From the NCBI GenBank assembly GCA_027486005.1, contig JAIXPZ010000067.1:2119-66118 (forward strand): DNA of 64,000 nucleotides, given 5' to 3'. The notes beneath the pieces were generated by a model that worked only from the letters and a program-made list of their open reading frames with translations, was not told where the DNA came from and ran no database searches. The position numbers and the translations under genes are program-made. Positions 58,545-62,088 of this stretch are shown here, one piece after another. The stretch comes from Legionellales bacterium. Lineage in GTDB: Bacteria > Pseudomonadota > Gammaproteobacteria > JAGOUN01. Positions within the stretch are counted from its first letter, which is position 1, and each line of letters starts with the position of its first letter.

Positions 58545-59603
58545 TTAACTATAATTTAACGAGCTCAATGCCTTAGTCACTACTTGAATATCAGCGCCTG
58601 GGACATGGCAATGCGTACTTAAATGACGTCGCCATAGGCGTGATCCGGGTAATCCATTGAATATTCCCAACATTGGACGAACTAATGTGGATAATCTGAC
58701 GCCTGCGCTGAGTTGCTCTTCAACATAGGGTAAATATCGTTGAACAACAGTTATTGCACCTTGACGCTGATCCCTCTCCCGCGCTAATCGCGCGACCTCT
58801 CCCGCAAGGGGAGAGGTAACCGAAAAAAGCGCTTCTTCTAGTTCTCTAAAAAAATACGGATTCTCATACGCAGGTCGGCCAACCATGACCCCATCGACAT
58901 GTTCAAGATGCATCAGCGCATCGGAGACTGTTTTGATTGCACCGTTAATCACAATGGTCAATTCTGGAAAATCACGTTTTAATTGATAGACCCAAGGATA
59001 ATTGAGTGGCGGAATTTCGCGATTTTCTTTAGGACTTAGGCCGCTCAACCATGCTTTGCGTGCGTGAACGATTATCTGATGACAACCAGCACGCTGTATT
59101 AAGTCTACAAAGTTTTCTAAGTAACTATATTCTTCTTGTTCATCCACGCCGATGCGACACTTGACTGAAACAAGAGGGCGAGCGCCACTCGCCCCTACGG
59201 CCTCTACTGCAGATTTCATCGCAGCAACACATTCTGCGACCAATGCAGGTTCTTTCATTAAACAAGCACCGAAGCGCCCTTTTTGCACACGATCCGATGG
59301 ACAGCCGACATTTAAATTGATTTCGTCATACCCAAATTCTTTTGCCAGTCGAGCACATTGTGCTAACGCTTCTGGATCACTGCCGCCCACTTGAAGTGCA
59401 ATCGGATGCTCTTCTGGAGAAAAAGCTAAAAAACGTTGGGCATCACCACGCAATAAAGCACCGGTAGTAATCATTTCTGTATACAACAAACAATGTGGCG
59501 ATAATAAACGAATAAAATAACGAAAATGTCTATCCGTCCAGTCAAGCATTGGAGCGAGACAGAGTTTGTGGCGCTGAAAAAAACTACCTTCTCTATGGCT
59601 CAC
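58545..59603 (-). CDS. dusA: tRNA-dihydrouridine synthase A with two repeat insertions
   Basis: APMLDWTDRHFR, LYTEM, NLNVGCPSDRVQKGRFGACLM, VHARKAWLSGLSPKENREIPPL, GVMVGR. Confidence 0.97.
   Translation of the reverse strand: MSHREGSFFQRHKLCLAPMLDWTDRHFRYFIRLLSPHCLLYTEMITTGALLRGDAQRFLAFSPEEHPIALQVGGSDPEALAQCARLAKEFGYDEINLNVGCPSDRVQKGRFGACLMKEPALVAECVAAMKSAVEAVGASGARPLVSVKCRIGVDEQEEYSYLENFVDLIQRAGCHQIIVHARKAWLSGLSPKENREIPPLNYPWVYQLKRDFPELTIVINGAIKTVSDALMHLEHVDGVMVGRPAYENPYFFRELEEALFSVTSPLAGEVARLARERDQRQGAITVVQRYLPYVEEQLSAGVRLSTLVRPMLGIFNGLPGSRLWRRHLSTHCHVPGADIQVVTKALSSLNYS
58772..58816. repeat. CCCTCTCCC-type palindromic repeat in frame in dusA
   Basis: ccctctcccgcgctaatcgcgcga-cctctccc-gcaag-gggagagg; encodes TSPLAGEVARLARERD. 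Confidence 0.75.
59176..59198 (-). repeat. GTAG-REP type B in frame in dusA
   Basis: Minus strand GTAGGGGCGAGTGGCGCTCGCCC, read as VGASGARP. Confidence 0.92.
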
Positions 59604-60106
59604 ACTTCATTCATCCCAATGACTTCTGCAACCGCATAAAACACTTCCTTCAATTGCTCTTTACTAAGTGACGTTAATGGTCCAGTGATTAAACGTTTAT
59701 TATCAATTGCTCCTATTTGGTCGATTAATAAATCAGAGCCTTGTTTTAAATCATCTTGTGCCTCAACCCGGATTCTCAAAGGATGAGCATTGTCGATAAG
59801 CTGGGTAGTGAGCGGAATAATTAAGGTGGAGGGATGAAGAATGTCCAGAAGAGCCTGGTCTTGAAAAATTAATACTGGCCTTGTTTTGCCTGGCTCTGTC
59901 CCTCTACTGGGATTCAAATTGGCCAACCAAATCTGCCCTTGTTTAATAGATCTCTTTCGTAACTCTACTTCTGCGGAGAGTTTGTTCGTCGGTTCGGTAC
60001 TCGAATCCTCATGTACCCCCGTGTACACTGCGGTTCTGCGTTCCGATCCTTCTCCAACTTCTCTCACAGAAGCGAGTTTCGAAAGAGATCTAATCTTTAA
60101 GGTCAT
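59600..60106 (-). CDS. MazF/PemK toxin carrying an in-frame RPE1-like insertion
   Basis: KQGQIWLANLNPSRGTEPGKTRPVLIFQ...IIPLTT...SDLLIDQIGAIDNKRL; start ATG 60106 overlaps the antitoxin end. Confidence 0.9.
   Translation of the reverse strand: MTLKIRSLSKLASVREVGEGSERRTAVYTGVHEDSSTEPTNKLSAEVELRKRSIKQGQIWLANLNPSRGTEPGKTRPVLIFQDQALLDILHPSTLIIPLTTQLIDNAHPLRIRVEAQDDLKQGSDLLIDQIGAIDNKRLITGPLTSLSKEQLKEVFYAVAEVIGMNEV
59948..60091. mobile_element. 144-bp RPE1-like MITE with 12-bp TIRs and AAT target-site duplication
   Basis: agatctctttcg ... cgaaagagatct flanked by aat on both sides; peptide RSLSKLASVREVGEGSERRTAVYTGVHEDSSTEPTNKLSAEVELRKRS. Confidence 0.9.
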
Positions 60107-60329
60107 ATTCAATCTCATCAAATTCGGCATTAACTTTCATACTCTCTTTTCTCACCAACAAACTAGCAGCTTTTAACTTTTTCTCGCGTATGCGTTTTGT
60201 TATCTCAGCGTTCATACGTTTAATAGCTTGGCGTATATAATCTGCTTGTGGCACTTCTAAAAAATGCGAACTAGTTTTGACGGCTTTAAACAATTCATCA
60301 CTTACGCGCACAGAAATTAACGACGACAT
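60090..60329 (-). CDS. Ribbon-helix-helix antitoxin
   Basis: ISVRVSDEL...ADYIRQAI...ASLLVRKESMKVNAEF; directly upstream of the MazF gene. Confidence 0.85.
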   Translation of the reverse strand: MSSLISVRVSDELFKAVKTSSHFLEVPQADYIRQAIKRMNAEITKRIREKKLKAASLLVRKESMKVNAEFDEIEYDLKD

Positions 60330-60395
60330 TGCAGACTCCTATTTTAGACCCTTTTTTTACAGCATAGCCTGGCTATCAAAAAAGTCAACAAACAT

Positions 60396-60425
60396 ATATA
60401 CATTTTTGTCTACAAAAATGTATAT
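60396..60425. promoter_or_regulatory. Perfect 14-bp inverted repeat upstream of the antitoxin promoter (operator or terminator)
   Basis: atatacatttttgt-ct-acaaaaatgtatat; a TTGACT-16-TATGCT promoter lies at 60361-60388 (minus). Confidence 0.55.
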
Positions 60426-60985
60426 CACTCTACTTCTGTCACCGCATAGATCCCAGGAAGATTTCTAAAATAACCTTCGTAGTCCAAACCAAATCCAATT
60501 AAAAATAAATCTTCCACTTTCAAGCCTGTAAAGTCCGCATGCGCCAAGCCCCCTTCAGCACGCGGATGATTTTTATCAACGACTACCGCAGTATAAATTT
60601 TTGCAGCGCCTTCTGCTTGACAATATTTAATGATTTCTGCCAAAGTTGTGCCCGCATCTAAAACATCTTCAACAATCAAAATCACTCGATCTTTTAAAGA
60701 TGATCGCGGCTCGGCTAACCAATGTAACTGACTCGCGTGCATTTTTCCTTGGTAGCGCGTTACATGCAGGTAATCTAATTGCAAAGGAAAATGCAATCGA
60801 GTGACTAAGTGGCCCACCGGAATAATAGAACCATTCAACACTGTCATCACGATCGGTTGTTGATCTTGTAACTCTTGCGTGATCTCCACTGCCATGCGAT
60901 CTAGTGCGGCATTAATTGCTTGCATATCATGCAAACATGTTGCTTTTTTTTGCATTATTTGCAAATCATTCATTGATATTGTCAT
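60425..60985 (-). CDS. hpt: Hypoxanthine-guanine phosphoribosyltransferase
   Basis: DYLHVTRY, ILIVEDVLDAGTTL, GFGLDY.G.FRNLPGIY. Confidence 0.92.
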   Translation of the reverse strand: MTISMNDLQIMQKKATCLHDMQAINAALDRMAVEITQELQDQQPIVMTVLNGSIIPVGHLVTRLHFPLQLDYLHVTRYQGKMHASQLHWLAEPRSSLKDRVILIVEDVLDAGTTLAEIIKYCQAEGAAKIYTAVVVDKNHPRAEGGLAHADFTGLKVEDLFLIGFGLDYEGYFRNLPGIYAVTEVE

Positions 60986-62088
60986 GAGCGAAGATCTCCT
61001 CGAATATTTACTCCATCAGGAATATGCGTAGTGACGGTTGGGAAAGCAATTTGCACTTTATGTTCAGCAATAATATCGAGTATTTTGAACAAAATATCCT
61101 GTTGCACGTCGCGCCAATGGGGATTCGCGGTAGCTCGAGTAAAACAATAAATATTAATATCCAAAGAAGAAGCGCCAAATTTAACAAAATGCACCATCAG
61201 AAGTTGACGAGGATCAACATTGGGGTGTTGTCTTAACATTTGATCAATCGCCTGAACCAAACCTTTTAGTAAATGCCCGTCTTTATAACAAACGCCAATC
61301 GTGGCATCAATTCTCCTGTGTGTCATACGCTGTGGATTAACAATAATCACCTGATTGAATAACGCATTCGGGATATACAAGGGTCGATTATCCAGCGCCA
61401 TCACTTTCGTTGTACGCCAACCAATGCGGGTTACAGTACCTTCAATATCGCGATCTGGCGACTGAATCCAATCTCCAAGCTTGAAAGGTTTATCGAGAAA
61501 AATCATCAAGCCACCAAACCAATTCGCCAGTAATTGCTGCGCCGCGATCCCCATGACAATCGCACCACCACCACCAAAAGCTAACAAACCAGTTAACGGA
61601 ATTCCCAGGGATTGTAAAAGAATCAACATCCCCACGACAATCAAACCAATTCGCGTAAAGCGCCCCACTACTGAAACCGTTGTTTCATCCATTTTTTTTC
61701 GTGACTCAGACGGAGTTACTAAACGCTGCTCAATTAGATTAATATAACGCCAAGAGAACCAGACAAAAATCAACACCGAGATTCCAATACGCACCCGAAT
61801 CACTTCCTGCGACCACTCTTTTTGATTCATATCAAGCAAAACATACTCTAAAAATAAGGCGGCGGCACACATCCAAACCAGCAAAGCTAAAGGCAAAGAT
61901 AATGCCTGCAATAAAGTGTCATCCCAAACATGATTGCTTTTTTTCAAGTGTACTAATAAACGCTTAACCAGCTTCCGCTGCAGCCAATAAACAAAAAAAG
62001 CAGCAAGAAAAATAATTATGCCATGCATCATCCAGGCATATTCCGAGTATGCGCCTAATAAAGTAACTAACCAGTTATGCAAATACAT
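60982..62088 (-). CDS. MscS-family mechanosensitive channel
   Basis: LLAFGGGG, LANWFGG...DKPFKLGDWI, EGTV..IGWRTT, IAFPT. Confidence 0.93.
   Translation of the reverse strand: MYLHNWLVTLLGAYSEYAWMMHGIIIFLAAFFVYWLQRKLVKRLLVHLKKSNHVWDDTLLQALSLPLALLVWMCAAALFLEYVLLDMNQKEWSQEVIRVRIGISVLIFVWFSWRYINLIEQRLVTPSESRKKMDETTVSVVGRFTRIGLIVVGMLILLQSLGIPLTGLLAFGGGGAIVMGIAAQQLLANWFGGLMIFLDKPFKLGDWIQSPDRDIEGTVTRIGWRTTKVMALDNRPLYIPNALFNQVIIVNPQRMTHRRIDATIGVCYKDGHLLKGLVQAIDQMLRQHPNVDPRQLLMVHFVKFGASSLDINIYCFTRATANPHWRDVQQDILFKILDIIAEHKVQIAFPTVTTHIPDGVNIRGDLRS

Follow-up and report, generated by a model that had tools for sequence, protein, structure and literature searches.

An RPE1-family palindromic MITE at the antitoxin-stop/toxin-start junction of a MazF/PemK-type module in a gammaproteobacterium

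Introduction

The RPEs of Rickettsia are a textbook example of selfish DNA inside protein-coding genes, and protein-coding palindromic repeats were reportedly also described in Wolbachia by Ogata, Suhre and Claverie in 2005. The RPE1 family was described in Ogata et al. 2000 and 2002, as summarised in the sections of PMC2229807 and PMC10969869 available to us, and according to the same sections RPEs have been described in Rickettsia only. The number of copies can be large: 526 RPEs are given for R. bellii, 53 of them within genes, in the accessible part of PMC1458961. How RPEs move is stated to be unknown in the accessible part of PMC2229807, where the target duplication is entered as '?'.

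Other MITEs have been described in Coxiella burnetii, namely QMITE1 and QMITE2, which are about 400 and 190 bp long and have terminal repeats of 21–29 bp and target duplications of 2–4 or 7–9 bp (PMC5896051, accessible part). The accessible text of that paper is without the term RPE, and Rickettsia appears there only in two reference-list entries. In the accessible parts of the RPE literature on Rickettsiella, Legionellales and Gammaproteobacteria, no RPE is reported in a gammaproteobacterium.

In this study, we describe an RPE1-family element that lies in a toxin gene of an uncultured, Legionella-like gammaproteobacterium, within a stretch of DNA of 64,000 nt that was analysed as a whole and is called the window here. 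All coordinates without a prefix refer to this window, and the host genome is designated G000.

The element and its insertion site

An earlier reading of the sequence alone (the sequence-only reading) had described an element of 144 bp with perfect 12-bp terminal inverted repeats (TIRs) and an AAT duplication, 147 bp net, and all of these were found exactly so. The features of the locus are as follows.

59600..60106, minus strand: MazF/PemK-family toxin with insert, 168 aa (P0001), PemK domain at residues 55–162
59711..59713, minus strand: codon of toxin Gly132, a position that is Arg in 88 of 90 aligned homologues (DQIRAID motif)
59945..59947, no strand: target-site duplication AAT, left copy; ATT on the minus strand, encoding toxin Ile54
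59948..60091, minus strand: RPE1-family palindromic MITE, 144 bp, whose minus-strand open frame supplies toxin residues 6–53
59948..59959, no strand: terminal inverted repeat, left arm, AGATCTCTTTCG
60080..60091, no strand: terminal inverted repeat, right arm, the exact reverse complement of the left arm
60092..60094, no strand: target-site duplication AAT, right copy; ATT on the minus strand, encoding toxin Ile5
60090..60329, minus strand: antitoxin gene, 79 aa, probably ribbon-helix-helix, with its TAG stop at 60090–60092

The terminal 12-mer, with at most one mismatch allowed, is found three times in the window, where 0.37 occurrences would be expected; none of 100 shuffles reached three. 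The whole 144-bp element folds as a single hairpin of −69.9 kcal/mol (shuffle mean −35, z = −9.06), a stability reached by none of 200 shuffled elements. This hairpin begins 15 nt past the A of the toxin start codon and holds the antitoxin stop inside its base; the TAG stop itself is built with the last two bases of the element, and base 60092, in the right AAT copy, doubles as its first base. An Rfam scan of 59000–61000 returned nothing but a chance miRNA match (E 0.89).

The in-silico deletion of 59948–60094 (147 bp) yielded a 119-aa toxin beginning MTLKIKQGQIWLANL and turned the antitoxin stop from TAG to TAA at an unchanged codon position, thereby reproducing the stop change that the sequence-only reading had proposed. 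Its claim of 49 aa gained after residue 5 of the toxin also held: the toxin begins with MTLKI, followed by 48 element residues and I-KQGQIWLANL.

The toxin–antitoxin module

The toxin matched PF02452 over residues 55–162 (model 1–108 of 109, 76.8 bits, E 1.8e-21), and its nearest solved structures were those of S. aureus MazF and B. subtilis EndoA. The insertion point corresponds to query residue 5, the first to align with the solved MazF structures, indicating that the element precedes the MazF fold. AlphaFold2 run on a 90-sequence alignment gave a poor model, with a mean pLDDT of 48 and values below 35 in the insert. The antitoxin gene lies upstream of the toxin gene and overlaps it, the layout expected for a type II module; its profile matches were below the respective cut-offs (RHH_3, 18.9 bits against 21.6; CopG_antitoxin, 17 bits against 28).

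The sequence-only reading had held that the insertion preserves both genes. This stands for the reading frames; beyond the frames it does not fully stand, as the G000 toxin has Gly132 in place of the Arg that nearly all homologues carry. Arg is found at this position in the orthologue of the congener G002 and in the proteins P0002 and P0003, and it is the presumed counterpart of a catalytic Arg of Kid. The invariant or near-invariant residues W60, R76, T100, T101, D129, Q130, D135 and N136 are intact in the G000 toxin, which carries three private changes, Gly132 and two others, relative to G002, P0002 and P0003 (positions 70, 83 and 101 of the 119-aa core). The G000 toxin may be weakened or crippled through Gly132, independently of the insert.

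A more distant homologous pair in G005, which belongs to another genus of the same family, has the same layout and an uninterrupted toxin, MSMIKHGEIYLANL. The pair was not found by DNA similarity in the congeners G001, G003 and G004, and the module seems to be accessory in this genus. The DNA similarity of these three congeners to the region 59500–60450 was restricted to the 5′ end of the downstream neighbour gene.

Filled and empty alleles

The search for toxin homologues gave 4628 proteins with E ≤ 0.001, of which the best 120 were listed. Among these best 120 of 4628, the protein P0002 (168 aa) was the sole bearer of the insert, with a query coverage of 99% against 64–74% for the remaining 119. 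A natural uninserted allele, for which the sequence-only reading had proposed a search, was found in the metagenomic protein P0003 (119 aa). It starts MTLKIKQGQIW, has the same N-terminus as the toxin excised in silico and equals that product at 114 of 119 residues, in keeping with the claim that removal of the element restores the uninserted toxin. This natural empty allele shows that translation of the toxin truly begins upstream of the element, and not downstream of it as in the contrary case that the sequence-only reading had raised, and that the insertion adds exactly 49 codons.

The mazF alleles of G000, G002 and P0002 are therefore filled and that of P0003 is empty. In G002, the orthologous toxin–antitoxin locus contains the element and differs from that of G000 at 30 of 951 bases with no indels. 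The differences amount to 5 of 144 bases in the element and 12 of 348 in the rest of the toxin gene, and those outside the element comprise 6 synonymous and 5 non-synonymous codon differences. P0003 differs from G002 at 4 of 119 residues and is as close to it as the filled alleles are to one another, on relationships that one or two amino-acid positions decide. Both junctions, toxin–element and element–antitoxin, are spanned by contigs from three independent metagenome studies, and among the assembled contigs of four metagenome runs no joint skipping the element was observed.

Membership in the RPE1 family

The match of toxin residues 6–53 to the NCBIfam profile TIGR01045 (RPE1), a check that the sequence-only reading had suggested, was full-length (model 1–48 of 48) and reached 30.7 bits (E 2.2e-7), just above the cut-off of 30 bits, which it clears by 0.7. 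In a six-frame search of G000 with the same profile, this copy scored 32.9 bits and the copy on contig C27 scored 21.1 bits, below the cut-off; the copy on contig C56 was missed. By the protein alone, membership in RPE1 would be borderline, and the assignment leans on the DNA alignment. Because of the borderline score, bona fide RPE1 copies of Rickettsiaceae were brought in for comparison. The six-frame TIGR01045 search was run on 61 genomes, a sample of the family to which a 'Rickettsiaceae bacterium' MAG belongs; 13 of these gave a match, 12 with scores above the cut-off, and the best score was 100 bits.

A gap-free DNA alignment over 144 bp was obtained for 21 copies from 17 genomes, consisting of this element, nine Rickettsiaceae copies and eleven others. 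The identity of this element was 61–79% to the nine Rickettsiaceae copies and 77–85% to the other gammaproteobacterial copies and those of the Rickettsiales MAG G405. In one Rickettsiaceae copy (G462), the first arm is exactly the right terminal repeat of this element together with three inner bases. The consensus fold of the family contains 48 pairs, 23 of which show compensatory changes, and the comparison of the element with the family profile by nhmmer gave an E-value of 1.4e-40. The gap-free alignment and the covarying hairpin indicate homology and not convergence. The identity of the insert as an RPE1-like MITE, first proposed from the letters of the sequence, is thus borne out by the TIGR01045 match, the DNA alignment and the common hairpin.

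Copies and mobility

The sequence-only reading had also proposed a search for more copies, and this gave three in G000, on three contigs, and four in G002. The second G000 copy lies just upstream of dnaX (83% identity to the mazF copy by BLAST), and the third is joined in frame to the C-terminal tail of an rRNA adenine dimethylase gene and runs into the next gene (82% by BLAST). Three of the G002 copies are orthologous to those of G000; the fourth, between dapD and pip, is 99% identical to the mazF-borne element. The G000 counterpart of the dapD–pip site (C53:9571-9574) is empty and has a single AAT. This filled/empty pair gives a net insertion of 147 bp with a duplication of 3 bp and indicates that the element moved recently, after the split of the G000 and G002 species. 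The element was not found in G001, G003, G004 or G005.

Identical flanking 3-mers were present in 28 of the 44 full-length copies with both flanks, and all of them were of the form A-N-T (ATT 14, AAT 12, ACT 1, AGT 1); the ends of the family are written AGAYNTCTTTCSAAAC. A 2-bp TA duplication, which the T/A flanks of several copies would fit, was ruled out by the filled/empty pair together with the A-C-T and A-G-T duplications. The features of a MITE are all present, namely TIRs, a target duplication, dispersed copies, filled and empty sites and no transposase gene.

An autonomous element with matching ends 0.5–2.5 kb apart was sought, with no convincing pair in G000 and none in G002, G406, G421, G450 and G462, drafts that may hide one. 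The end-to-end spacings in the latter genomes were 44, 144–147, 270 and 393 bp. Since neither a transposase nor a complete element ending in these repeats turned up in the six genomes, mobilisation in trans is assumed.

Other copies also lie in frame in host genes, which are named here by Pfam: CcmF in G187, a NuoL-type subunit and a tyrosine recombinase in G405, and a LanC-like protein and a PMT_2 glycosyltransferase in G406. Where an open frame of 150 aa or more spans the copy, the RPE1 frame is used in 24 of 30 cases, a count biased towards open RPE1 frames since the loci were found with peptide profiles.

Other palindromic repeats

G000 contains a second palindromic MITE family of about 130–158 bp, whose termini are nearly of the RPE1 type (AGAKCTCTTTCCAAAC) and whose interior is different. 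Its copies are the following.

G000:C37:197-326 (L103:98-227): copy of the second family
G000:C41:267-424 (L104:98-255, upstream of the window): copy of the second family
G000:C66:11390-11519: copy of the second family
G000:C70:21847-21977: copy of the second family
G000:C63:37063-37104: remnant of the second family, ends only, 42 bp

The flanking 3-mers are AAT/AAT at three sites, ATT/ATT at C70 and ATT/AAT at C66. The common termini and the same duplications suggest that one transposase may serve both the RPE1-type and the second family. Two frames of the second family had no match in NCBIfam. The ends of two of these contigs, G000:C37:1-117 and G000:C41:1-117, look alike by eye and probably represent the end of a repeated insertion sequence that breaks the assembly.

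In the Rickettsiaceae genome G450, three units of 393 bp (C1:752782-753174, 1439292-1439684 and 1620372-1620764) have the RPE1 terminal repeat at their ends and may be a longer relative or a composite. The unpublished genome G044 has at least nine repeat copies that match only the central hairpin of the element (L005, L008, L010, L012-L014 and L016-L018; BLAST query 48-98, nhmmer model about 47-133). Judged from this one unpublished genome, the repeat would be a family with an RPE1 core on other arms.

Host and distribution

The G000 assembly is of the metagenome type, with 1.86 Mb in 83 contigs, 99.7% completeness and 0.24% contamination. The host is a gammaproteobacterium of the same class as G187 (loci coincide with 'uncultured Gammaproteobacteria bacterium' records), and its genome includes a gene for DotH/IcmK, a component of type IVB secretion (266.8 bits). 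The stretch was detected in metagenome runs from freshwater and wastewater, runs with a small share of it being left out. The ATP/ADP translocase profile PF03219 had no match in G000, and the control was likewise without a match.

TIGR01045 matched 3 of the 400 genomes in the sample of the host class, G000 included, the others being G096 and G187; G187 has 2 copies. A peptide-pattern scan of one genome per species gave 21 loci, from three 'Gammaproteobacteria' MAGs and one each of a 'Coxiellaceae bacterium', 'uncultured Rickettsiales' and 'Rickettsiaceae bacterium' MAG. The whole-genome matches numbered 25 in G406, 3 in G407, 3 in G405 and 46 in G404. Besides G000 and G002, related copies are present in four more gammaproteobacterial genomes and in one Rickettsiales MAG. 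The NuoL-type protein of this MAG (G405) scored 600 and 544 bits to Rickettsiaceae against 436–443 to gammaproteobacterial genomes, so that the Rickettsiales label fits.

In a tree of 57 copies, the gammaproteobacterial copies (except that of G096) and those of G405 form a group with a support of 98/89 among the Rickettsiaceae copies; as this tree is midpoint-rooted and built on 144 columns, no donor or direction of transfer is claimed. DotH/IcmK was detected in each of the six gammaproteobacterial genomes that carry the element, and the figure for the class sample was 53 of 201. This link is suggestive only, since two of the six, G000 and G002, come from one genus and the element itself is what defines the group. 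In one of these genomes, the DotH/IcmK match at G187:C2:17224-17923 falls into two overlapping pieces, one with an internal TAG, and the gene may be broken or the assembly in error.

The cross-class sharing that the sequence-only reading had put forward is seen at the DNA level, in the gap-free 144 bp shared by the gammaproteobacterial element and Rickettsiaceae RPE1. The RPE1 family is not confined to Rickettsia and lives and moves in a second bacterial class; we therefore take 'Rickettsia-specific' as its historical host range and not as a defining property of RPE1. A transfer among co-infecting intracellular bacteria may have taken place, with only indirect support from the presence of DotH/IcmK in all six genomes.

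Discussion

The insert in the toxin gene of G000 is probably best understood as an RPE1-family MITE that persists as a tolerated selfish passenger, with a reduction of toxin translation as its likeliest side effect. A transposase acting in trans would have inserted the element at an A-N-T target, with duplication of 3 bp (AAT), and the target here is the stretch in which the antitoxin gene, at its end, overlaps the beginning of the mazF-type toxin gene. Between residue 5 and the first β-strand, the toxin thereby gains 49 residues. It stays in frame because the net insertion is 147 bp and the family has one conserved, stop-free, hydrophilic frame, and the length of the antitoxin is kept because the end of the element recreates the stop (TAG for TAA).

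As the element would be a selfish passenger, its effects on the module would be side effects. The insertion would be tolerated because the element lies at the N-terminal edge of the toxin fold. Concerning translation, a stable hairpin near the start codon should lower it, as is generally known of initiation, and reduced translation of the toxin would be the most likely side effect of a hairpin of about −70 kcal/mol placed 15 nt downstream of the A in the start codon. Such attenuation by the hairpin is plausible from the predicted fold; the sequence-only reading had put it forward together with a possible change in toxin activity.

Several other explanations have to be weighed against the tolerated passenger. 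The insertion, or a later mutation, could have inactivated the toxin, leaving a pair that is becoming a pseudogene and an open frame that reflects youth and not selection. We regard such decay as rather unlikely, although part of the data agrees with it: Gly132 of G000 replaces an Arg found in 88 of 90 homologues, the G000 toxin has its three private changes (70, 83 and 101), the 6 synonymous and 5 non-synonymous codons outside the element do not indicate strongly purifying selection, and DNA similarity did not reveal the pair in three other congeners. However, all three filled alleles retain 168 codons without a stop or frameshift, the Arg is kept in G002 and P0002, and the remaining invariant or near-invariant positions are intact even in G000. 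Lower still do we place the chance that the host has co-opted the hairpin as a regulator, which would reduce the translation of the toxin relative to that of the antitoxin or provide an RNase target, and would thus form a built-in attenuator, which an exact excision between the 3-bp repeats might undo. The divergence of the element (5/144) equals that of the rest of the toxin gene (12/348), giving no sign of special constraint on the element, and the other copies lie in unrelated genes and spacers, as expected of a selfish element. A regulatory role would be favoured by the very stable hairpin adjoining the toxin start codon and by the three diverged alleles (G000, G002 and P0002) in which the insert and both frames are intact. 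The empty P0003 is as near to G002 as the filled alleles are to one another, so a loss by precise excision is possible, on allele relationships that hang on one or two amino-acid sites. The case for a regulator is sequence-based, and the metagenome runs consist of contigs, which are silent on RNA level and RNA ends.

A bolder proposal, which we consider very unlikely in its full extent, is that a lineage of RPE1 MITEs, crossing classes among host-associated bacteria (Rickettsiales and Dot/Icm-bearing Gammaproteobacteria) and still transposing in a freshwater genus, acts as a removable attenuator of the module. The hairpin at the antitoxin-stop/toxin-start junction would damp toxin synthesis, and slippage between the 3-bp A-N-T repeats would excise the element precisely and so account for the presence of an empty allele among the filled alleles. 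Scarcely credible, and already largely refuted, is the idea that an unrelated MITE converged on RPE1 or that a Rickettsiales contig was mis-binned. It draws on the HMM score at the threshold and on a metagenome-type assembly of 83 contigs. Convergence is opposed by the gap-free alignment over 144 bp, the common termini, the central hairpin with its compensatory changes and the nhmmer E-value of 1.4e-40. Mis-binning is opposed by the position of the element, 62 kb into a contig of 67.7 kb, by its presence on two more contigs of G000 and in G002, by the contigs of three independent studies that bridge the toxin and antitoxin junctions, and by the contamination of 0.24%.

With the element taken as a tolerated selfish passenger of the RPE1 family, the present locus may advance the study of RPEs in several respects. 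It supplies filled/empty pairs for one coding insertion and one spacer insertion, and the 3-bp A-N-T duplication narrows the search for the RPE transposase. It also places the same family, by DNA evidence, in two bacterial classes with a common host-associated lifestyle. Its special merit is a small toxin gene that occurs naturally in a filled and an empty form and whose activity can be assayed: a comparison of MazF toxicity in E. coli between the two forms makes the effect of an RPE on its host protein or message testable.

Compared with known toxin–antitoxin systems, the module resembles MazEF and PemIK (Kis-Kid) in having the antitoxin gene upstream and overlapping the toxin start, and in the PemK (PF02452) fold family of the toxin. 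It differs from them by the 49-residue, transposon-derived N-terminal insert of the toxin and, in G000, by Gly in place of Arg132. Among MITEs, QMITE1 and QMITE2 are alike in that they belong to a Legionella-related intracellular gammaproteobacterium, overlap or extend ORFs and form stable hairpins, whereas their sizes, terminal repeats and duplications all differ, showing them to be different elements (PMC5896051, accessible part). RPE-2 to RPE-10 of Rickettsia and the Wolbachia repeats are also hairpin elements able to sit in frame.

The closest described system is RPE1 of Rickettsia, which measures 105–146 bp, ends in a 12-bp inverted repeat and folds as a long stem-loop (PMC2229807, accessible part), and the 144-bp element described here agrees with it. 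As in RPE1, one conserved open frame is placed in frame within housekeeping genes, the peptide family is the same and the DNA can be aligned. The differences from the Rickettsia elements concern the host, which is a Dot/Icm-bearing freshwater gammaproteobacterium and not Rickettsia, and the copy number, with 3 RPE1-type copies here against the 526 RPEs of all families in R. bellii (PMC1458961, accessible part). A 3-bp A-N-T duplication is seen here where Table 1 of PMC2229807, in its accessible part, has a question mark. Finally, within the RPE1 family the copies from gammaproteobacteria group with those of one Rickettsiales MAG in a supported subgroup of their own (98/89).
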